This document shows, one piece after another, positions 5,944 to 56,448 of a stretch of 64,000 nt of DNA. Source of the DNA: an uncultured Methanosarcinales archaeon (GTDB lineage: Archaea; Nanobdellota; Nanobdellia; Woesearchaeales; GW2011-AR4); NCBI GenBank assembly GCA_964438385.1, contig CAYTKI010000002.1, forward strand, positions 2,219 through 66,218, given 5' to 3'. Positions within the stretch are counted from its first letter, which is position 1, and each line of letters opens with the position of its first letter. The notes under the pieces were generated by a model, which saw nothing but the letters and a program-made list of their open reading frames with translations, had not been told where the DNA came from and ran no database searches. Both the position numbers and the translations under genes were made by a program.

Positions 5944-7244
5944 TGGATATCAACCTTCCACCACAACACATCTTCCCCATATGGATTGATTGCGGTGATC
6001 TTTACATAGTAACTGCCCTTCTGTGTCGGGGTAAAGTTTATTTTTCCACTCAGAGGGTGAATATCAAAAAAAGGAGAGTCATCCAGGAATACCACTTTGC
6101 CAGCCGACCCATTCAAAAGCCCGGCTTCATATTCCACCAACTCTCCGACGCTTCCTGAATAGTTTGCCATTTCCCTGAGAAGAGGGGGGTTTTCTCCCTT
6201 ATTGATCGTTAGTTCAAGAAGAGTGTCCCCCATATTCCCTTGACCATCTTGGACCTCAATCAGCACAAAATCCTCGCGATCCTCAAGATTTGCAGGATTG
6301 ATCGCGAATTCTCCCGTGTTGGGGTTGATATCCACTATCTCTGAATGGCTTACGAAATGAAGATCGCTTCCCTTAGCGATTATCCGCGAAAGATATGCGT
6401 CATTTGATGTGAGCAACACCGGAGGATGGCTTTCCACAGCAATTCTTCTCTTTTGTGGGGTGCTCGAATTCCAATCAAATCTCTCGGCAAACCCAAAAAC
6501 CTTTGTTTGCTTATCAGAATCGTTGAATATTATCCCGAATGCGAATTTTCCGCCCCCAAAACTTTGCTGCTCAAATGAGAAATTCCCTTCCTTTGCCATT
6601 CTTGCAAGCGAGGAGAGGGGGATCCCATCAGGAAATTCCTCTTGTTCGACCATGAATCCTGAAAGGGCGAGGCGCACCTTTTCAAGCACTGTTTTCTGCT
6701 CAATGATGAAATTAGACATTTTAATCTCTTCCCCCTCATAGGAAAACGTGATCGGATAGTGAAGAGAAACAGTGAGCGCATCAGTTGTGAGCAATGAAGA
6801 TACCCTCTCCATTTTTCCCTTGATATCCATGCCTCTCTTCCTGAAGGGGATAAACCCCCCAATACATTCATCGAGATGATCTTCCACATAGGAGGAGATG
6901 GCAATCTCCATACTTTCCTTAGTTGCAAGATTTGAGCCATTCCCTTCCCACACATAGGGCAGACCAATAGAATAATACTCCAATGTGTTTTCTCCAGAAG
7001 GATACTCTCCACCCCTGATCGCGACCTCCGCTATGGATTTTTTCACGGTACTTCTCAGGCATTGCTCCACAAAAAGAGAAATTGGCGCTGCCTTCTCTGA
7101 TGATTGAAGGGCAGAGGAATCAGACTTTTCTTGCGCAGCTCCCCTCGCATCTGATTTGAGGAGTAGATAGGTGCCTACCATAGTGAGAAGGAGCACAATA
7201 ATTATGAGGAATATGCTCATTTGGCCTATTTTATTCTTTTGCAT
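5940..7244 (-). CDS. Class III signal (type IV pilin-like) surface protein with C-terminal Ig/cadherin-like repeats
   Basis: MQKNKIG|QMSIFLIIIVLLL prepilin-like N-terminus. Two INPxTGxFxxxP-type cadherin-like units. Its stop overlaps the start of the LysM-amidase gene. Start moved to M27 of the ORF-track call. Confidence 0.68.
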   Translation of the reverse strand: MQKNKIGQMSIFLIIIVLLLTMVGTYLLLKSDARGAAQEKSDSSALQSSEKAAPISLFVEQCLRSTVKKSIAEVAIRGGEYPSGENTLEYYSIGLPYVWEGNGSNLATKESMEIAISSYVEDHLDECIGGFIPFRKRGMDIKGKMERVSSLLTTDALTVSLHYPITFSYEGEEIKMSNFIIEQKTVLEKVRLALSGFMVEQEEFPDGIPLSSLARMAKEGNFSFEQQSFGGGKFAFGIIFNDSDKQTKVFGFAERFDWNSSTPQKRRIAVESHPPVLLTSNDAYLSRIIAKGSDLHFVSHSEIVDINPNTGEFAINPANLEDREDFVLIEVQDGQGNMGDTLLELTINKGENPPLLREMANYSGSVGELVEYEAGLLNGSAGKVVFLDDSPFFDIHPLSGKINFTPTQKGSYYVKITAINPYGEDVLWWKVDIQ

Positions 7245-10581: not shown

Positions 10582-11990
10582 CTGAGTATCCTCTTTAAAG
10601 TATTATTCACATCCCTTGGAGGTGCCTTCCCCTTCGCCTTCCTCATCACTTGGCCGACAAGGAAATTGAAGGCCTTTTCTTCCCCATTCTTGTACTGCTC
10701 AACAACTGAGGGATTTTCCTTGACTGCTTCCCTGCACCACTGCTCAACAAGAGAGGTATCCCTAACTGCCTCAAGCCCTTCTTTTCTGACATACTCCTCA
10801 ACATCAAAAGGGCTTTCCGCCAGCTTTTCAATTAACCTCTGCCCAATTTTCTCTGTAATTATTTTTTTCTCGATGAGCCGTAACAATGAAATAAGGTGTG
10901 TTGGGGCAATGTGAGAATCTTCCAATGATTTTTTATTGTGATGCAAAACTCTAGGTAGTTCCCTTCTCACCCAATTGGCCGCAAGCTTGGGATCCACCTG
11001 CTTTGAGACCGCCTCATACATCGCCGCAAGCGCCTTGTCTTTGGAGAGGACATGCGCCGTAGTGTCTTCAATGCCGTGCTGCTCGCGGAATCTTTTGAGC
11101 TTTTCCTGAGCAAGTTCTGGTAATTCCTCTTTCAATTTATCAACAGTCATATCATCAATGATGATGGGGACTAAATCCGAATCGATAATGTAGCCATAAT
11201 CCTCTTCCGCTTCCTTTTTTCTCAAAGAGAATGTCGCGCCCTTCTCCGCATCCCATGAGCGCGTTTCCTGAGCAATTTTCTCCCCTCCCAAAACCTCTTT
11301 GCGCTGGCGCGCAATCTCGTAGTGGAGCGCCCGCTCAATCTCCTTGAATCCAGTGATGTTCTTGATTTCAACTCTTGTATAATGGGATTCCTTAATGGAG
11401 ACATTCGCATCCGCCTTAATGATCCCTGCGTTCAGATCAAAGACGCCAAGATAGTCAAGAATCGTTATCAATTGATTTAAGAAATCCCGCGCTTCCTCTG
11501 GAGAGTTCATATCGGGCTCGGTCACTATCTCAGTGAGGGGGTTTCCGCTTCTGTTATAATCTATTAAGACATACGCCGATTCGTGCATTCCGCCGGGATG
11601 GATAAGCGATGCGGGATCCTCTTCTAGGTGGATGCGCTTCATCGCAATCTCCTTTCCATTATCCAGTATAAGTTTTCCACCCGTTCCAAGCGGCAGCTCG
11701 TATTGTGTGATTTGGTAGTTCTTTGACATGTCGGGATAGAAATAGGATTTTCTCGAGAAGATAAGCTCTTTTGCGATAGTACTCTTTAGCGCAAGGCAAA
11801 TCTTTATTCCATGCTCAACTGCCTTTCTGTTGAGAACCGGCTTTGAGCCGGGCATTCCAAGGCATGTTGGGCAGGTCCGCGAGTTCGGCTCATCGCTTCC
11901 CGTGGTCGGACATGAACAGAAAAGCTTGGTCTTGGTATTGAGCTCTGCATGCACTTCAAGGCCGATGATGATGTCGGTTGTGAATTTCAT
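10578..11990 (-). CDS. gatB: Asp-tRNA(Asn)/Glu-tRNA(Gln) amidotransferase subunit B
   Basis: IGLEVHAEL, RKSYFYPD, HLEED, DYNRSG, RVEIKN, C-terminal Yqey-like domain. Confidence 0.96.
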   Translation of the reverse strand: MKFTTDIIIGLEVHAELNTKTKLFCSCPTTGSDEPNSRTCPTCLGMPGSKPVLNRKAVEHGIKICLALKSTIAKELIFSRKSYFYPDMSKNYQITQYELPLGTGGKLILDNGKEIAMKRIHLEEDPASLIHPGGMHESAYVLIDYNRSGNPLTEIVTEPDMNSPEEARDFLNQLITILDYLGVFDLNAGIIKADANVSIKESHYTRVEIKNITGFKEIERALHYEIARQRKEVLGGEKIAQETRSWDAEKGATFSLRKKEAEEDYGYIIDSDLVPIIIDDMTVDKLKEELPELAQEKLKRFREQHGIEDTTAHVLSKDKALAAMYEAVSKQVDPKLAANWVRRELPRVLHHNKKSLEDSHIAPTHLISLLRLIEKKIITEKIGQRLIEKLAESPFDVEEYVRKEGLEAVRDTSLVEQWCREAVKENPSVVEQYKNGEEKAFNFLVGQVMRKAKGKAPPRDVNNTLKRILS

Positions 11991-12451
11991 GGTTGTTCCT
12001 GCCTTTTTCCACTATGCTCCTGCCGCTTTTTAAAAATTTCCTTAATGATATCATCAGCGCATTTGTCCCAAAATAAGATGATTTCCCTTGCCTGTGCGGA
12101 AGTGACCCGAAAGCCACGGTAATTTGCATCATTGCGTATCCGCTTGAATCTGGGAAGGTGATTGAGCATCAGCTTTTCCCAAATATCCATTTCCATGAGG
12201 ATCTCCATGGACACCTCATGGTTCTTCGGCTCATAGCCAAGCAGCCACCATTTCGCGTCTCCCAGTTGGCGTATGGACTCATAGATTTCCCTGAAAACAA
12301 GGGTTGCGCTATCTTCATCCAGTGCCACCTCCTTTGCGACTCTGGCGTTTGTTTTCGCAAAATCCGCCATTGATTTTATCCGCTCCCCATCCGGCTGCCG
12401 CACTCTCAGTTGGCCGCTGCGCAGATATGAGTCAATGGCATCTGTTCTCAT
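11987..12451 (-). CDS. HEPN-domain protein (putative toxin)
   Basis: All-helical, with YESIRQL and R-IRNDANYRG motifs; lies directly downstream of an MNT gene. Confidence 0.72.
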   Translation of the reverse strand: MRTDAIDSYLRSGQLRVRQPDGERIKSMADFAKTNARVAKEVALDEDSATLVFREIYESIRQLGDAKWWLLGYEPKNHEVSMEILMEMDIWEKLMLNHLPRFKRIRNDANYRGFRVTSAQAREIILFWDKCADDIIKEIFKKRQEHSGKRQEQP

Positions 12452-13068
12452 TTCCTTACCTCGAGGAATCCGCAGAGGACAATGCCGTTCGCGATGTTGT
12501 TGAAGACGTTGATGTCAACAGATTTTCTGTTAAAAACATGAATCTGGATTTCCCTGCTCCCAATGATGGGCTCAAATTCAGTTTTGAATTTTACCAATTC
12601 CAAGCTCAAAAATCCCGTAGTCTCTTTTGCTGTGAATATTCCCTCTTCTTCCTTGTTATCGCTCTCTATGGCAATATCTATGTCTGAAGTGGAGATGTCA
12701 TCCCCCTTCCTGAAGCTGCCGAAGAGGATGATGGCTTTGGGATTGCCATACCATTTGTTGAGGATTTCCACCAATCCGGAATGGTAGATGAAACTGAGGT
12801 TGTAGAGGATCTTGCTTCTGATAAATGATTCATTCTGCTGTTCTGGCCTGATGCGCCATATGCTGCTGAGTTCAGTGATGCGGATGATGCCCATTGCCTC
12901 AAATTCTTTTAGCAGAGGGCCGATGTGGGTTTTTGCGACGCGTGCTTTCTTTGCAAGCTCCGAGAGGCTGAATTCCTGCTCTGGCCACTTGCACAGTACT
13001 CCAAGGATGCGCTGTCTTGAGCTTTGCCCGAACAACGCAAGGTATTTTTTTGTAACAATCGGTTTCAT
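12448..13068 (-). CDS. wHTH plus minimal nucleotidyltransferase (MNT) antitoxin
   Basis: N-terminal SLSELAKKARVAK HTH; ILFGSFRKG...SDIDIAI nucleotidyltransferase motif. Confidence 0.85.
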   Translation of the reverse strand: MKPIVTKKYLALFGQSSRQRILGVLCKWPEQEFSLSELAKKARVAKTHIGPLLKEFEAMGIIRITELSSIWRIRPEQQNESFIRSKILYNLSFIYHSGLVEILNKWYGNPKAIILFGSFRKGDDISTSDIDIAIESDNKEEEGIFTAKETTGFLSLELVKFKTEFEPIIGSREIQIHVFNRKSVDINVFNNIANGIVLCGFLEVRK

Positions 13069-32885: not shown

Positions 32886-34697
32886 ATGGAAATCATCCAC
32901 TCATTTAGGCAATGGTCAGCAAGGAAAAATGCCAAGGGCAGCGTGCAGGTCCTCCAAACAAACCGCAATGGAAGCTACTTTCTCTGGGAGGATGATCCGG
33001 CAACACGGTACAGCGGCTTGTTTTGGTACGATTCAGAGAATAAAAAAATGTTTAAAATTATTGAACATATTAAGCTAAAAAATTCTAAAAATAGTATAAA
33101 AATAGTGAACAATATATTCATGGTGAAAAAGCATTCAAGGGAAAATGGGGAAACGGTATTCATGCCCTCGGAATCTCCAACGCTGTGCTATGCGCTTGAT
33201 AAGCCAGATGAGATTGAGCTGTTCCTTGATGTGAAAGAATCCTATGATAATCGCGAATGGGGCCGCGGCTATCGCATGTGGGAAGAGGAAGAATGCCTTA
33301 TCATAAAATTCACAAAGAAAACAGATGATCGGGAAGATGGCAGTAGTGGCCAGGAGGAGTATTCCCTCTTTCTTGCCATTGCAGGGCATAATGGCTTCAC
33401 CAAAAAGTTGGAATGGGTGCAGCGCGAATACGCCTCAGATAAGGAGAGGAACTCTCCCCCGTTTGCTCGCTATGTCCTCAAAGCATGCTCATTGAAAGGG
33501 AAGCGTTATGTATTCTCTGTCGCGAAAAGTAAGGATACTGCCAAAAAGGAAGCTCTTGCTATTCTCAAAAAATCCTCCGCGCTGCAAAAAAAAGAGGAAG
33601 TGTACCTTGCCACCCTCAAAAAGCAGAAAATCGTTGCCCGGGTGCTAAAATCCCTTCTTACAAAGGAAACAAAAATGGCGTTCCTCGCGGCCATCTCTTC
33701 CCTCGATAAGCTCATTGTCCATGGCAGGGATGCGCACAATGTGTGTGCGGGATTGCCCTGGTTTTTCCAGTTCTGGCCGCGCGATTCCTTGGTTTCACTG
33801 AAGGCACTGGGCATCATCCATCCGAAACTAGCAAAAGATATTCTGACAAGCTACCTTGGCAAAGTCCAAGATGATGGTCGGATCCAGAATATTTCCAGTT
33901 CCTCGCTCGCAAGCGCAGATGCCGTTGGCTGGCTCTTCCTGCGCGCAGGGGAGATAATTCCAAATGAGCTGCTTCTCAAGCGTGCAGTGGCCGCGGCAGT
34001 AGAGGACTTGTCCAATCACCATACTCAAGGAGGGCTAATCGTCAACGGGCCAAAAGAGACATGGATGGATACCCAGTATGGCAATGATGGCAGGCAAGGG
34101 GCACGAATCGAGATCCAGGCATTGCAGCTCTCGCTTCTCCGTGCTGCGCATCAGATCACGGGAAATGGCAAATACGCTCTCAAAGAGCAGGCGATGAAAA
34201 AAAAGGTGAGGGAGACCTTCTGGAATGGCAAATCCCTAGCGGATGGGTTGGATGACCCAACCATTCGCCCAAACATCTTTATTGCTGCATATGCCTATCC
34301 TGATCTTCTCTCGAAGAAAGAATGGGAAACCTGCTTTGAAAATGCGCTTCCAAAGCTCTGGCTCAGGTGGGGCGGCCTTTCCACTATTGATGTTTCACAT
34401 CCGCTGTTTAAAAAAGAGCACACTGGGCAGGACAACGCAAGCTACCACAATGGTGATTCCTGGTTTTGGGTGAATAATCTCGCTGCAATGATTCTCCAAA
34501 AAACCAATCCGCAGAAATTCAGGATATACATTGAAAAGATTGTCTTGGCATCAACCCAGGAGATCCTCTGGCAGGGCGCGATTGGGTGTCATGCGGAGCT
34601 CTCATCCGCATCGTCATTGAAAAGCCAGGGCTGCCTCTCCCAGGCATGGAGCAGCGCGATGTTTGTGGAGATGGTGGTGGAGTTATGTAAGGAGTAG
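32886..34697 (+). CDS. Amylo-alpha-1,6-glucosidase (glycogen debranching, GDE_C)
   Basis: AGLPWFFQFWPRD, TWMDT, IRPN, YHNGDSW, QAWS. Confidence 0.88.
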   Translation: MEIIHSFRQWSARKNAKGSVQVLQTNRNGSYFLWEDDPATRYSGLFWYDSENKKMFKIIEHIKLKNSKNSIKIVNNIFMVKKHSRENGETVFMPSESPTLCYALDKPDEIELFLDVKESYDNREWGRGYRMWEEEECLIIKFTKKTDDREDGSSGQEEYSLFLAIAGHNGFTKKLEWVQREYASDKERNSPPFARYVLKACSLKGKRYVFSVAKSKDTAKKEALAILKKSSALQKKEEVYLATLKKQKIVARVLKSLLTKETKMAFLAAISSLDKLIVHGRDAHNVCAGLPWFFQFWPRDSLVSLKALGIIHPKLAKDILTSYLGKVQDDGRIQNISSSSLASADAVGWLFLRAGEIIPNELLLKRAVAAAVEDLSNHHTQGGLIVNGPKETWMDTQYGNDGRQGARIEIQALQLSLLRAAHQITGNGKYALKEQAMKKKVRETFWNGKSLADGLDDPTIRPNIFIAAYAYPDLLSKKEWETCFENALPKLWLRWGGLSTIDVSHPLFKKEHTGQDNASYHNGDSWFWVNNLAAMILQKTNPQKFRIYIEKIVLASTQEILWQGAIGCHAELSSASSLKSQGCLSQAWSSAMFVEMVVELCKE

Positions 34698-34800
34698 TTC
34701 TCGTATTTCTAATCTCCGCTTATTGAGGTGTCGCCGTATTGAGTTTTGGAGATTAAATTTGAATAGTTATCGTAGAAAGATAGCTATCTATGTTTTAAGA

Positions 34801-35214
34801 TTATTTAGCGCATAGTCTCAAAAATGTGGAGGGGTCAATTATTGGGATGCTTTCAAAGTCCTTGAGATTTAGCAAGTGCTTGTTGTCCCCTGTGACGATA
34901 TAGTCTGCTTTGCCAGAAATTGCGCACTCTAGGTACATATTGTCTGATGGGTCTTCTTTGATGAAATCTACCCTATGAGTGACTTCGACCATTATGGCTA
35001 TCTCCATCAGAATAGAAACGAATCTGGCTTTTTGCTCTTCTGTAAAATTGAATTTGGGATAATTTATGACCCTTAAGAGTTCTTCCAATTGTTTGGCTGA
35101 GACCAAAAGTTCAAATTCCCCATCGACAATTTTTTGAAAGATCTTCCTTGCTTTGCCGTCCCATCCCAAAGCAGAAACTAGTACATTAGTGTCCAGCACT
35201 AACCTCTTGCCCAT
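34801..35214 (-). CDS. PIN-domain (VapC-like) toxin, module 2
   Basis: VLDTNVLVSA, DPSDNMYLECA, YIVTGD. Confidence 0.9.
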   Translation of the reverse strand: MGKRLVLDTNVLVSALGWDGKARKIFQKIVDGEFELLVSAKQLEELLRVINYPKFNFTEEQKARFVSILMEIAIMVEVTHRVDFIKEDPSDNMYLECAISGKADYIVTGDNKHLLNLKDFESIPIIDPSTFLRLCAK

Positions 35215-35459
35215 TTAACTGCCTCATTGACATCCTTTTCGGTTATTTGGGCCTTGCGGAACTGTTTTTCCACTTCTTTGGCCAAGGCGGTGAATTCCTC
35301 TCTGACATTAGGCATCTTAATTTTTTTGAACAAAACTCCGCCTTTAACATGGAAAGGCACAAAACGATCCGTGGGCTTAAATCCTTCCATCTCCCTAATT
35401 TCTTTGGGAACCACAAGCTGCCCTTTAGGGGACATTTTCACAAGTTCTAAATCTTCCAT
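35199..35459 (-). CDS. AbrB/MazE-family antitoxin, module 2
   Basis: KMSPKGQLVVPKEIR; AGGTGA RBS; overlaps the PIN gene. Confidence 0.88.
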   Translation of the reverse strand: MEDLELVKMSPKGQLVVPKEIREMEGFKPTDRFVPFHVKGGVLFKKIKMPNVREEFTALAKEVEKQFRKAQITEKDVNEAVKWARG

Positions 35460-35470
35460 TGGGATCACCT

Positions 35471-35495
35471 AGTTTAACAGTTTAACTGTTAAACT
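35471..35495. promoter_or_regulatory. Palindromic operator of TA module 2
   Basis: Perfect inverted repeat AGTTTAACAG-N5-CTGTTAAACT between the TATA box and the RBS. Confidence 0.7.
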
Positions 35496-35496
35496 A

Positions 35497-35566
35497 TATA
35501 AATTTTCCTATTAAAAAAGGGCCTGCACATCCGGGATAGTACAGCCGCGGGTGCCGCCATTATCCG
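35497..35566 (-). repeat. ~70-bp direct repeat, copy 1 (includes BRE/TATA)
   Basis: About 90% identical to 36296-36366 by manual alignment (7 differences). Confidence 0.9.
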
Positions 35567-35599
35567 AAACCTCCTGCGCGAGAGGTTGTCGTAGTGACT

Positions 35600-36001
35600 T
35601 TAAGGGTTTACTTCCCGTAAGAATTCTGCTGGCCTGAGTATCTTGATGCCCTTATACGCCTTCAGCTTGAGTAAGTGATTATCCTGCGTCACTATGTATC
35701 GGCTGTTACTGGTGATTGCGCATTCCAGTATCCGATCATCAGTCGGGTCGTCCTTGATGATTTCTATGCGTATTTTTGGCTCCACTATTTTGGCAAAGGA
35801 GAAGGGGTCTATCATTGCCGTGATCTCTTCCTTGCTTCTTCCAAAGTCCCTTGCGAGCACTCTTCTGATCTCGGTGAGGATATGAGAAGAGGCGAATACC
35901 TCAACTTCCCCTTCCACGGCCAAGTTTACAACCAGATAAGGATCTCCCTTCCAAAAAATCGAGGAGATGTATATATTGGTGTCAAAAACAACCCTATCCA
36001 C
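35600..36001 (-). CDS. PIN-domain (VapC-like) toxin, module 1
   Basis: VFDTNIYISS, DPTDDRILECA, YIVTQD. Confidence 0.9.
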   Translation of the reverse strand: MDRVVFDTNIYISSIFWKGDPYLVVNLAVEGEVEVFASSHILTEIRRVLARDFGRSKEEITAMIDPFSFAKIVEPKIRIEIIKDDPTDDRILECAITSNSRYIVTQDNHLLKLKAYKGIKILRPAEFLREVNP

Positions 36002-36260
36002 TCTTTACGCCCCTGCCTTTGTGGATAATCTTCATGACATCCGTTTGCTTCCAGCCTTTCTCTTTTGCAAGTTTCACTCCCCATGCATGGATTTTATCAA
36101 AAGTCTCCTTTGCGGAAGGCACGTCCACTTTCTTGAGCACGATAGTGTCTTCCCTTCCAAAAATGACAAAGCTTGTCCCCGTCATTAAGGATAGCTGATC
36201 TCTTAGCTCCTTCGGAACCACTATTTGTCCTTTTGAAGACATGGTTATGATTTCACTCAT
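35994..36260 (-). CDS. AbrB/MazE-family antitoxin, module 1
   Basis: TMSSKGQIVVPKELR; GGTGA RBS before ATG 36260. Confidence 0.88.
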   Translation of the reverse strand: MSEIITMSSKGQIVVPKELRDQLSLMTGTSFVIFGREDTIVLKKVDVPSAKETFDKIHAWGVKLAKEKGWKQTDVMKIIHKGRGVKSG

Positions 36261-36277
36261 GGGTATCACCAGTAAGC

Positions 36278-36296
36278 AAGTAAGCATAGCTTACTT
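36278..36296. promoter_or_regulatory. Palindromic operator of TA module 1
   Basis: AAGTAAGC-ATA-GCTTACTT, plus an extra AGTAAGC half-site at 36271-36277. Confidence 0.65.
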
Positions 36297-36366
36297 ATAA
36301 ATCTTCCTATGGAAAAAGGGCCTGCACATCCGGGATATTGCAGCCGCGGGAAGCCGCCATTATCCG
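36296..36366 (-). repeat. ~70-bp direct repeat, copy 2
   Basis: Matches 35497-35566. Confidence 0.9.
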
Positions 36367-36758
36367 TATCAACTTGCCCGACCAGCGCGCCGTCTTGATA
36401 AATATATTCTTCAGTATAATTTCCAGAAGAATTCTCAATCACTAAATATTCATTTGAGATGTAGTAGATGGTGTAGTTCTTAGTGCCGTTGTGATAGACA
36501 TCTTTGATTAAAATCCGTTCTTCAACAGGATGCCAGGTGTACTCTTCCAAAACGGGCCCCGTGCTAAGGTTGCCGCTCCTGATTCTTATGAGTTGGTTTA
36601 ATTCATTATACTCCCAATAATAGGAATTGCCCGTTATAAGATTTCCGCCCCCGCCGACCTGGGAGATTAAGTTTCCAGCCGCATCGTAGGCGTAGTTCCA
36701 CGTCCCAGATCAGGGTCTTTGAGACGAATCTTGCGCCCAGAGAATCATAAGTAAAAAA
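36367..36758 (-). pseudogene. RHS/YD-repeat protein fragment
   Basis: Restoring one G at about 36735 and one at about 36703 gives TYDSLGRKIRLKDPDLGTWNYAYDAAGNLISQ...YNELNQL...YIYQDGALVGQVDTD. There is no start, and the fragment is cut off at the repeat. Confidence 0.8.
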
Positions 36759-36766
36759 AGAGCTGG

Positions 36767-37321
36767 CTATTTCTTCTCTCTCTTTCCAACATGCGACCTA
36801 TGCGAGAAATAGTTCGCAAGCGCAATGAGCAGTATGCTCACGGCAAGGTAGAGGATGCTCAATGGCTCCTTGAACTCAAGCACCACGACCTTCTTGAAGA
36901 AATACACCATGAGGATGATAACGATGACCTTGGTGAGCACCGCCTTCAATTCCTCAAGAGAGTGAAAGGTGAGCCATTTGGGGTAGATGCTCTTCCCGGC
37001 CTTTCCGTTTTTCCCATTGCCCTTGATGACATCAATCTCGCTGATGAACAGCTCATAAATGCCAAGCGAGATGATGATGAGGATGATGCCGAGCAAAAAC
37101 TCGTCAAGCGAGGAGATGAGGTGCACAATCACCACGTTTGGCTCAATCTCTGAGTGGGTGCTGAGGGATTCTGTGATTTCCCGCACTGCCTTAACGGTGC
37201 TCTCAATGCCGAGAAAAAACGCGACCAATGAGGAGGCAAGAAGCGAGATGACTGCAATCAGAATGACAAAGCGGAAATTCCAAAGCCATTTCTCAAATAC
37301 CTCTTCGAGCTTGTTTGCCAT
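36767..37321 (-). CDS. YqhA (UPF0114) family membrane protein
   Basis: LD.FL.GIIL.I.SLGIYELFIS, SLEELK..L.KVIVII. Confidence 0.85.
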   Translation of the reverse strand: MANKLEEVFEKWLWNFRFVILIAVISLLASSLVAFFLGIESTVKAVREITESLSTHSEIEPNVVIVHLISSLDEFLLGIILIIISLGIYELFISEIDVIKGNGKNGKAGKSIYPKWLTFHSLEELKAVLTKVIVIILMVYFFKKVVVLEFKEPLSILYLAVSILLIALANYFSHRSHVGKREKK

Positions 37322-54071: not shown

Positions 54072-54357
54072 GGCTCTGTCCCGAATGAAGGCAGCGCCCC
54101 TTCCGTGAGCGAATAAGCAACTGCATCATACAATGCGGAAGGGGAAGTCCCAAACCTTTCCTTCCCTTCGGCTCAGGGAAGAAAAGTTTTACCAATAGAA
54201 AGGGCTACGCCTACCGTTTCTTTTCCCAGGGTTTTCTTTGCCCGACCAACGGGAGGGGAAAGAAAAGGCTGACGTGGAGGGAACCGCATATCTGATTGCA
54301 ACATCCATAAGCGAGCCCAGCGCTGCCCGAAGCGTTAGCGAGATTCGGGACAGAGCC
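54072..54357. mobile_element. MITE, 286 bp
   Basis: Perfect 15-bp TIRs GGCTCTGTCCCGAAT (54072-54086) and ATTCGGGACAGAGCC (54343-54357). 9-bp direct repeat CTAGCAACC at 54063-54071 and 54358-54366. No transposase ORF. Confidence 0.9.
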
Positions 54358-56393: not shown

Positions 56394-56448
56394 TTTCTTT
56401 TCCCAGGGTTTTCTTTGCCCGACCAAAGGGAGGGTAAAGAAAAGGCTG
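56394..56448. repeat. 55-bp stem-loop repeat also found inside the MITE (54217-54271)
   Basis: TTTCTTTTCCCAGGGTTTTCTTTGCCCGACCAA(C/A)GGGAGGG(G/T)AAAGAAAAGGCTG, 2 mismatches. Confidence 0.9.

Follow-up and report, generated by a model that had tools for sequence, protein, structure and literature searches.

A promoter-bearing repeat ahead of two unrelated AbrB-PIN operons in a DPANN archaeon and its likeness to the junction of an IS91-like transposase gene

Two neighbouring toxin-antitoxin (TA) operons of the AbrB-PIN type in an uncultured archaeon raise the question of how operons with only distantly related proteins can be headed by nearly identical DNA. The operons are located on contig CAYTKI010000002.1 of GenBank assembly GCA_964438385.1, which belongs to a DPANN archaeon (Woesearchaeales in the GTDB lineage). 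They lie within a stretch of 64,000 nucleotides (nt) that was analysed as a whole and is referred to as the window; all coordinates are window positions. The sequence preceding each operon is termed R, with R1 heading the first operon (TA1) and R2 heading the second (TA2). On balance, R is probably a junction of an IS91-like Y2 element, the one on its transposase-distal, oriIS side, with an outward promoter for the adjacent AbrB-PIN operon.

The entire locus is encoded on the minus strand. A UPF0114 gene is followed by an RHS gene relic, R1, operator A, AbrB1-PIN1, a 33-nt spacer, R2, operator B and AbrB2-PIN2 (Table 1). R1 and R2 are identical at 64 of 71 positions (90%) and differ by one 1-nt indel, a deletion in R2, which also has five substitutions compared to R1. 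An exact 25-nt core of R occurs twice in the window, compared to 0 occurrences expected in shuffles, and the two R copies, 800 nt apart, are the only ones in the 64 kb. The repeat heading the two TA operons is confirmed as real. On the left side, the likeness extends weakly (9/15) over another 15 nt. On the right side, it ceases directly after the TATA box, at the start of the private operators. R ends with a run of five or six T residues and GGAA(G/A)ATTTATA; the latter precedes the start codon by about 36 nt and is a plausible B recognition element and TATA box (BRE/TATA).

Much of this had been proposed in a first-pass annotation made from the sequence alone. The gene order and strand it gave are borne out by open reading frame (ORF) and domain matches, and its estimates of about 90% identity between the repeats, of only distant similarity between the two TA pairs and of different palindromic operators agree with the values reported here. 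Two of its statements stand in part. It described a hairpin followed by TTTTT and BRE/TATA; the T-run and the BRE/TATA are present, and the hairpin is not supported. Folded as RNA, the GC-rich segment of R is as stable as shuffled sequence (z -0.7 to +0.9), and as DNA 10-17% of the shuffles are equally good. It also had the repeat truncate the RHS gene at the exact base where R begins; the relic does end at R1, with an overlap at the boundary that is described below.

The two operons are not products of a local duplication. PIN1 and PIN2 are 38% identical, AbrB1 and AbrB2 30%, and the coding DNA 56%. Orthologues of TA1 are found in five independent groups of other Nanoarchaeota/Woesearchaeota contigs (including L016/L017, L018, L019-L025 and L026/L027), with PIN proteins 54-63% and AbrB proteins 69-81% identical (the AbrB range is from L016, L018, L022 and L026). 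Operator A, the TATA box and the Shine-Dalgarno sequence are conserved upstream of these orthologues (L016, L018, L019-L022 and L026). PIN2 is equidistant (37-39%) from all toxins of the TA1 orthologues and has closest relatives of its own at 53-56%, which indicates that R did not co-diverge with TA2. The separation of TA1 from TA2 long predates that of these archaeal lineages, which makes the 90% identical leader inexplicable by co-divergence. By these comparisons, TA1 and TA2 are independent lineages and no in-situ duplicates, and the earlier argument that an old tandem duplication would be insufficient holds, as PIN1 is closer to its foreign orthologues than to PIN2.

In other respects the operons are, as far as their sequences tell, ordinary VapBC-like AbrB-PIN systems whose proteins have no unusual feature. 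As in type II TA systems, each has a small antitoxin gene overlapping a PIN toxin gene, by 8 nt in TA1 and by 16 nt in TA2. The acidic PIN residues are conserved and aligned in both toxins. Each operon has its own BRE/TATA, operator and Shine-Dalgarno sequence as read from the DNA, and both are probably functional. Searches of IMG/VR for relatives of PIN1, PIN2, AbrB1 and the L022 Y2 fragment, and with AbrB and Y2 alignments, found none.

The origin of R is suggested by the DNA upstream of TA1 orthologues. In L019-L022, which come from several metagenomes including NCBI GCA_035290685.1, a Y2_Tnp ORF (PF04986, E=7e-19) terminates at a stop codon that precedes the AbrB start by 46 nt. The 3' end of this ORF, CCGCAGCTGCAATATCCC..GGGCAGCTTTTCATAGGAAGATTTATAAG, aligns with R. 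In L022, the last ~14 codons of the ORF, the stop codon and the following DNA are colinear with R (L022, CCGCAGCTGCAATATCCCTCAATGGGCAGCTTTTCATAGGAAGATTTATAAGTAAG; R1, CCGCGGCTGCAATATCCCGGATGTGCAGGCCCTTTTTCCATAGGAAGATTTATAAGTAAG). An nhmmer search against L019, L021 and L022 with the operator excluded gives E=6e-4 for R1 and E=0.017 for R2. The core of R without T-run and promoter reaches a score of 32, compared to a maximum of 21 among 2000 shuffles (0/2000 reach 32; p<1/2000). In L018, a Y2 gene is found 600 nt upstream of the TA1 orthologue. The earlier suggestion of a promoter-carrying element end fits these results: the R core shares homology with a Y2 ORF end, and the BRE/TATA reads into the TA operon.

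The matching part lies past the conserved motif ('R[YH]YG[AV]YS') with which the Y2 domain closes, in a tail of the L022 protein that exceeds those of two other DPANN Y2 proteins by 11-15 amino acids (aa). A palindrome is present at the homologous place (GGCTGCA..TGCAGGCC in the window, AGCTGC..GCAGCT in L022); its outer pair changes from G-C to A-T, and its stability is not significant. The shared palindrome with a compensatory outer pair is at most suggestive of an oriIS feature. A Y2 relative in another contig, L012, carries the IS91 zinc-binding N-terminal domain (Zn_Tnp_IS91). IS91 elements have the order terIS-tnpA-oriIS-target, and their last 82 bp hold oriIS with subterminal palindromes (PMC13181058).

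The contigs with the Y2 gene have ends of their own to note. L019 and L020 (MEGAHIT k141 contigs; positions 1-140) start ~130 nt before AbrB, within the transposase tail, and L021 and L022 begin mid-transposase. Such contig ends inside the Y2 gene suggest that the gene is multicopy or variable in those metagenomes.

Table 1 Features of the R1-TA1-R2-TA2 locus and its flanking genes (window positions)
Feature	Position	Strand	Remarks
UPF0114 membrane-protein gene	36767-37321	-	Precedes the RHS relic
RHS/YD-repeat gene relic (small secreted protein)	36362-36709	-	Pfam RHS_repeat, E=1.4e-6
R1, 71 nt	36296-36366	-	Repeat copy heading TA1
R1 left motif CGGATAAT	Start of R1	-	
R1 segment homologous to Y2 transposase ORF end	36311-36349	-	
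R1 imperfect palindrome GGCTGCA..TGCAGGCC	36319-36345	-	Inside the transposase-end-homologous segment
R1 T5 run	36313-36317	-	
R1 BRE/TATA GGAAGATTTATA	36296-36307	-	
Operator A: AGTAAGC-TAT-GCTTACT, then direct repeat TGCTTACT	36271-36295	-	Between TATA box and GGTGAT Shine-Dalgarno sequence
AbrB1, 88 aa, AbrB/SpoVT-MazE-type antitoxin	35994-36260	-	PF04014, E=1.4e-7; TIGR01439; MazE_antitoxin match
PIN1, 133 aa, PIN_3 toxin	35600-36001	-	GTG start; PF13470, E=6e-20; TIGR00305
Spacer, 33 nt	35567-35599	-	Between PIN1 stop and R2; motif AGGAGGTTT continuing into CGGATAAT
R2, 70 nt	35497-35566	-	Repeat copy heading TA2; parts as in R1
R2 transposase-end homology	Begins 35550	-	
R2 palindrome	35520-35546	-	
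R2 T6 run	35513-35518	-	
R2 BRE/TATA GGAAAATTTATA	35497-35508	-	
Operator B: palindrome TAGTTTAACAG-TTT-AACTGTTAAACTA	35470-35496	-	12-bp arms; unrelated to operator A; GGTGAT follows
AbrB2, 86 aa from ATG at 35459, AbrB-type antitoxin	35199-35459	-	PF04014, E=6e-4 (under Pfam cutoff); TIGR01439, E=2.9e-5
PIN2, 137 aa, PIN_3 toxin	34801-35214	-	PF13470, E=3e-20; TIGR00305
Glycogen-debranching GDE_C gene	32886-34697	+	Convergent with PIN2

If R is an element end, the locus could have arisen as follows. The unit of Y2 gene, R, operator A, AbrB and PIN is still intact in related DPANN archaea. In the window, the transposase genes would have been lost twice, and DNA corresponding to the last ~20 codons would remain together with the promoter. 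R1-TA1 would be the vertically inherited remnant of a Y2-R-TA unit. Its transposase would have disappeared, probably in a deletion between short stretches of similar sequence, and the small RHS toxin gene would have been cut off as well. R2 would be a younger copy from the R lineage, placed before the unrelated TA2 and supplying its TATA box. ISCR1 has outward promoters (POUT) at its oriIS end (PMC6218425); the supply of a promoter by R2 would resemble the way in which ISCR1 gives such promoters to oriIS-adjacent genes. Today, R would most likely act as an insulator in which the oligo-T run stops upstream transcription and the BRE/TATA restarts it, and each antitoxin probably represses its own operon via the private operator downstream of the TATA box. 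Apart from the two TA operons, the locus looks like inert transposon debris.

The relative ages of the copies can be read from their differences. Where R1 and R2 differ, R1 mostly matches L022, so most changes in R2 appear to be derived. The identity of R1 and R2 (90%) is higher than that of R1 and L022 (~80%). R1 is thus nearer to L022 than R2 is, yet R1 and R2 are closest to each other, which points to R2 as a later copy within this R lineage.

The spacer to the left of R2 may hold a further trace. In one frame, these 33 nt encode SHYDNLSRRRF, which is weakly like the Y2 C-terminal motif RHYGAYSRNQR / RYYGAYSRRLRKRF; 21 codons lie between the spacer peptide and the stop, compared to 22 in the Y2 protein. 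The resemblance is confined to a short peptide (HY..SRR). The spacer is possibly a further relic of a transposase 3' end and is treated as a lead. If this is true, R2 would stem from a second transposase gene, truncated directly downstream of PIN1, and R1 would have been trimmed by a deletion that fused RHS codon ~130 with the transposase tail at the 9/15 microhomology.

Further copies of R were sought beyond the window. The exact 20-mer CCGGATGTGCAGGCCCTTTT from the R core gives 1, 4 and 0 matches in the GTDB representative genomes, the JGI metagenome contigs and IMG/VR, respectively, all of them chance matches with unrelated flanks. Logan assemblies of the read sets ERR3478687 and ERR4904393 hold the locus in three contigs. 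The first covers 38754-36557 (38551-36557 in ERR3478687), the second covers 36584-35516 and is continuous across R1 and TA1, and the third covers 35534-32779 (35534-33792 in ERR4904393), with the break inside R2 and an overlap of 19 nt. At the k=31 of Logan, adjoining contigs are expected to overlap by 30 nt. The 19-nt overlap instead points to an intervening node of 41 nt (35505-35545) that is joined to other sequences at either side, and these contig ends suggest at least one further R copy in the two samples, with exactly this part of R2 in common. The left limit of this node coincides with the start of the transposase-end homology.

Several points weigh against R as an element end. Neither tblastn nor Pfam reveals a Y2 gene or fragment in the window, and the link to R rests on contigs of other organisms. 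CTTG, GTTC and GTCC are found neither within nor adjoining R1 and R2; the specificity of an archaeal element may differ. The palindrome in R is not significantly stable. The left flank of R2 shows no significant similarity to the L022 transposase gene at the DNA level in a shuffle test, and a profile search did not recover the R relics suspected after PIN in L018 and L026. In addition, archaeal Y2 proteins can be Rep proteins of rolling-circle plasmids or viruses (Wang et al. 2018, as cited in PMC6563490); 'transposase' is therefore used here as the Pfam name, and the activity is putative. Finally, the L022 segment that matches could belong to the TA leader, with the transposase ORF simply running into it and R as the insertion target.

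This last point leads to the most serious competitor, which is nevertheless judged unlikely. R would be the landing site of the Y2 element or the native leader of the AbrB-PIN cassette; the element would insert beside it, its ORF would read into R up to the first stop codon, and R2 would be a copy of the leader. Such an origin is consistent with an R relic staying with the TA operon where the Y2 gene is separated by another gene or absent (L018, L016 and L026), with the R-matching tail of the L022 ORF being outside the Y2 domain and absent from two other Y2 proteins, and with the target specificity of IS91-family elements, which insert without target duplication (PMC13181058). However, it leaves the 90% identical R before the unrelated TA2 unexplained when taken alone, CTTG or GTTC is absent from the expected junction, and the TATA box of L022 lies ~86 nt past the conserved Y2 core, a distance that matches the 82-bp oriIS end of IS91.

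An origin of R without any mobile element is distinctly unlikely. A terminator-promoter module would have been duplicated locally and kept alike by gene conversion or selection, and the TA operons would have diverged or been swapped in. Just two copies, 800 nt apart, are found in the window, the exact 20-mer has no matches beyond chance in the GTDB representatives, JGI metagenomes and IMG/VR, and the T-run and BRE/TATA suggest an obvious cis-acting function. On the other hand, R is homologous to the Y2-TA junction of other organisms, TA1 and TA2 belong to separate lineages, a third copy elsewhere is implied by the contig breaks, and selection on a promoter would not keep the 45 nt upstream of the T-run.

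R might also bound mobile units. In this quite improbable scenario, R would be a functional end with an ori/ter-type nick site and a hairpin, and a Y2 protein from another place in the genome would mobilise R-bounded TA units (R1-TA1-R2) in trans, giving rise to head-to-tail TA arrays in DPANN archaea by rolling-circle capture. A 17-nt motif, AGGAGGTTTCGGATAAT, at 35559-35575 spans the left edge of R2 and 9 nt of the spacer, and its second half opens R1. In L026 (Logan SRR22216449), AGAAGGTTGCGGATAAT at 6407-6423, 8 nt after the PIN stop codon, matches it at 15 of 17 positions (shuffle p ~0.003). The motif may be a true unit boundary, as either a nick site or a recombination site, and this possibility keeps the rolling-circle cassette array alive as a reading. 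If correct, such an array would be an ISCR-like counterpart of the integron cassette array, in which each unit has its own promoter. Other similarities seen by eye, namely the CGGATAAT motif upstream in L016 and R relics after PIN in L018 and L026, were discarded, being unsupported by profile search and shuffle tests; only the 17-nt motif of L026 held.

The integron-like delivery of TA cassettes proposed in the first-pass annotation, with R as an attC/att-like site of site-specific recombination, is very unlikely: the layout is cassette-like with a conserved sequence before two different operons, integrons do occur in Archaea (PMC9668308) and the 17-nt motif recurring after PIN in L026 could mark a cassette boundary, but R lies 5' of genes with promoters whereas integron attC sites lie at the 3' end of mostly promoterless cassettes expressed from a common Pc, has no R''/R' core motifs and no significant fold, and shows homology to a transposase ORF end. 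Further searches gave no support either. Pfam scans of ~50 ORFs across the window (~14 of them without a Pfam match) found no integrase, recombinase or transposase, HUH transposases included; attC cores (GTTRRRY/RYYYAAC) are absent from R1 and R2 and occur only in operator B and at one coding position; and the repeat is present in two copies, with no further exact 20-mer copies in the three public DNA collections. The neighbourhood is of a housekeeping type, with aminoacyl-tRNA synthetases, glycogen metabolism and a secretion ATPase. The nearest GDE_C orthologues in the collections are 52-62% identical; their pairing with glycogen synthase is conserved and the downstream side is non-syntenic, so these loci are uninformative on synteny or an empty site.

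Other identities of R were considered and rejected. A structured RNA is not supported, as Rfam gave no match, either for the window at gathering score or for 34700-36800 at E<=1, and R folds no better than shuffles. An attachment site derived from a tRNA fragment was dismissed because there is no tRNA near the locus. R is also not a continuation of the RHS reading frame, as the RHS homologues diverge at the start of R and R2 is frameshifted.

The preferred origin of R as the end of a Y2 element also bears on the RHS gene upstream. The RHS relic is truncated at both ends: the start and most of the signal peptide are lost, an in-frame stop codon is located at 36710-36712, and the reading frame breaks off behind '...YIYQDGALVGQVDTD'. 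The identity of the relic to 15 short secreted YD proteins is 59-75%; these continue with '...DGNKQFLHNDHEG...DP..' at the point where the window diverges. Homology extends to '...LVGQVDTD' and thus ends within ~5 nt of the R1 start, overlapping its first bases CGGAT, rather than at an exact base. What remains is the N-terminal ~130 aa, ending before the '...YDPQ..NR..NNP..DPTGH' region of the homologues. Of the parts of an RHS/YD toxin (YD repeats, RHS core end with a DPxGL-type motif and C-terminal toxin), only the YD repeats are present, and the piece is by its sequence a relic and no functional RHS toxin. In L012, an RHS fragment is truncated seven codons earlier than the relic in the window, and a Y2 gene lies beside it.

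Further observations concern RHS loci in general. The Logan contigs of the two read sets break at 36555-36586 within the relic, with a 28-nt overlap, which implies that the samples contain a further sequence, probably an RHS paralogue, with the same 32-nt stretch encoding the conserved motif RIRSGNLSTGP. L011 (NCBI GCA_964407725.1, CAYOWR010000008.1) is an RHS locus of a DPANN archaeon that contains a number of YD-shell genes. One of these has a weak precomputed match to a Cytotoxic domain and is followed by a DUF3916 gene, and the locus ends in the N-terminus of a small RHS protein that is 64% identical to the relic. Polymorphic-toxin arrays are thus shown to be present in these archaea. L012 (ENA ERZ4903072, k141_1253016) contains ACGTAAAGTTCTTTTT twice, at 1968-1985 and 2282-2300. 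Each copy closes a gene fragment (RHS, then FG-GAP-like) just upstream of a split IS91-type transposase (Zn_Tnp_IS91 and Y2_Tnp). Within the sequence is GTTC, the tetranucleotide of several IS91-family elements, and the two copies resemble recurring junctions at element ends.

Elsewhere in the window, a second direct repeat of 55 nt is found at 54217-54271 and 56394-56448. Its copies are 96% identical, have sharp boundaries and an internal palindrome (TTTCTTTTCCC...GGGGAAAGAAAA), flank three ORFs including DsbD_TM and ATP-cone proteins, and fold no better than shuffles. An overlapping gene pair on the minus strand encodes a 154-aa protein without Pfam match (11987-12451) and a 206-aa Polbeta/NTP_transf_2 nucleotidyltransferase (12448-13068), possibly a TA system of the HEPN/MNT type. 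ARAGORN predicts a 91-nt tRNA-Gln(CTG) at 23194-23284, possibly intron-containing, which Rfam does not report at gathering score and which overlaps the predicted start of a RIO-kinase ORF (23208-24113).

If R is indeed the end of an IS91-like element, DPANN archaea would have IS91/ISCR-type rolling-circle elements coupled to AbrB-PIN addiction modules, and promoter-bearing element ends would persist and be reused after the transposase is lost. This would explain a leader common to unrelated TA operons, the accumulation of TA pairs in housekeeping regions of small DPANN genomes and the breakage of small DPANN RHS toxin genes. As a caution, a conserved spacer with variable cargo would not always be integron-like.

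Among known systems, the two TA operons are closest in build to VapBC-like loci, with which they share the antitoxin-toxin order, the overlapping stop and start codons, proteins of 86-88 and 133-137 aa and a palindrome between promoter and start codon; what is unusual here is the shared leader, probably derived from an insertion sequence. As in RHS/YD loci, a YD fragment lies beside a putative mobile insertion; homologous small RHS genes in other DPANN contigs have C-terminal toxin/immunity arrays and similarly truncated fragments (L011 and L012). In contrast to those loci, the fragment in the window is N-terminal, without core end or toxin tip, and the TA pair is no RHS toxin/immunity module. 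Integrons are similar in that small operons, including the TA cassettes of superintegrons, are separated by a recurring sequence, and they are known from archaea (PMC9668308). Unlike in integrons, no IntI and no attI or attC sites are found here, and the repeat bears a promoter, lies 5' of the operons and is homologous to the end of a transposase gene.

TA modules are typical addiction cargo of plasmids. Replicons are also the setting of RepA of the haloarchaeal virus SNJ1, an example of archaeal Y2/IS91-type HUH proteins as rolling-circle initiators (Wang et al. 2018, as cited in PMC6563490 and PMC13107129). In contrast, the L012 relative of the Y2 protein has the IS91 zinc domain, the loci are found amid chromosomal housekeeping genes and no replicon context was seen around them.

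IS91/ISCR-type elements have mainly become known for mobilising resistance genes in bacteria. The locus differs from them in its archaeal DPANN host, in the BRE/TATA type of its promoter and in having a TA operon as neighbour instead of a resistance gene; the window contains no transposase and no CTTG or GTTC by R, and membership is not claimed for it. The likeness lies in the order of parts. In IS91 and ISCR, a Y2 HUH gene is followed by a short non-coding oriIS end of ~80 bp with a subterminal palindrome (PMC13181058), and in L021 and L022 a Y2 ORF is followed by R and the TA operon. In the known elements, genes next to the end are driven by outward promoters, tied to the element and moved or duplicated together with it (PMC13181058; PMC6218425), and the same would apply here. 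No description of an IS91-type element coupled to AbrB-PIN in DPANN archaea was found in the literature searched. Such a coupling, with a promoter-bearing end that is reused for a second TA operon, would be what this locus adds to the known range of IS91/ISCR-like arrangements.

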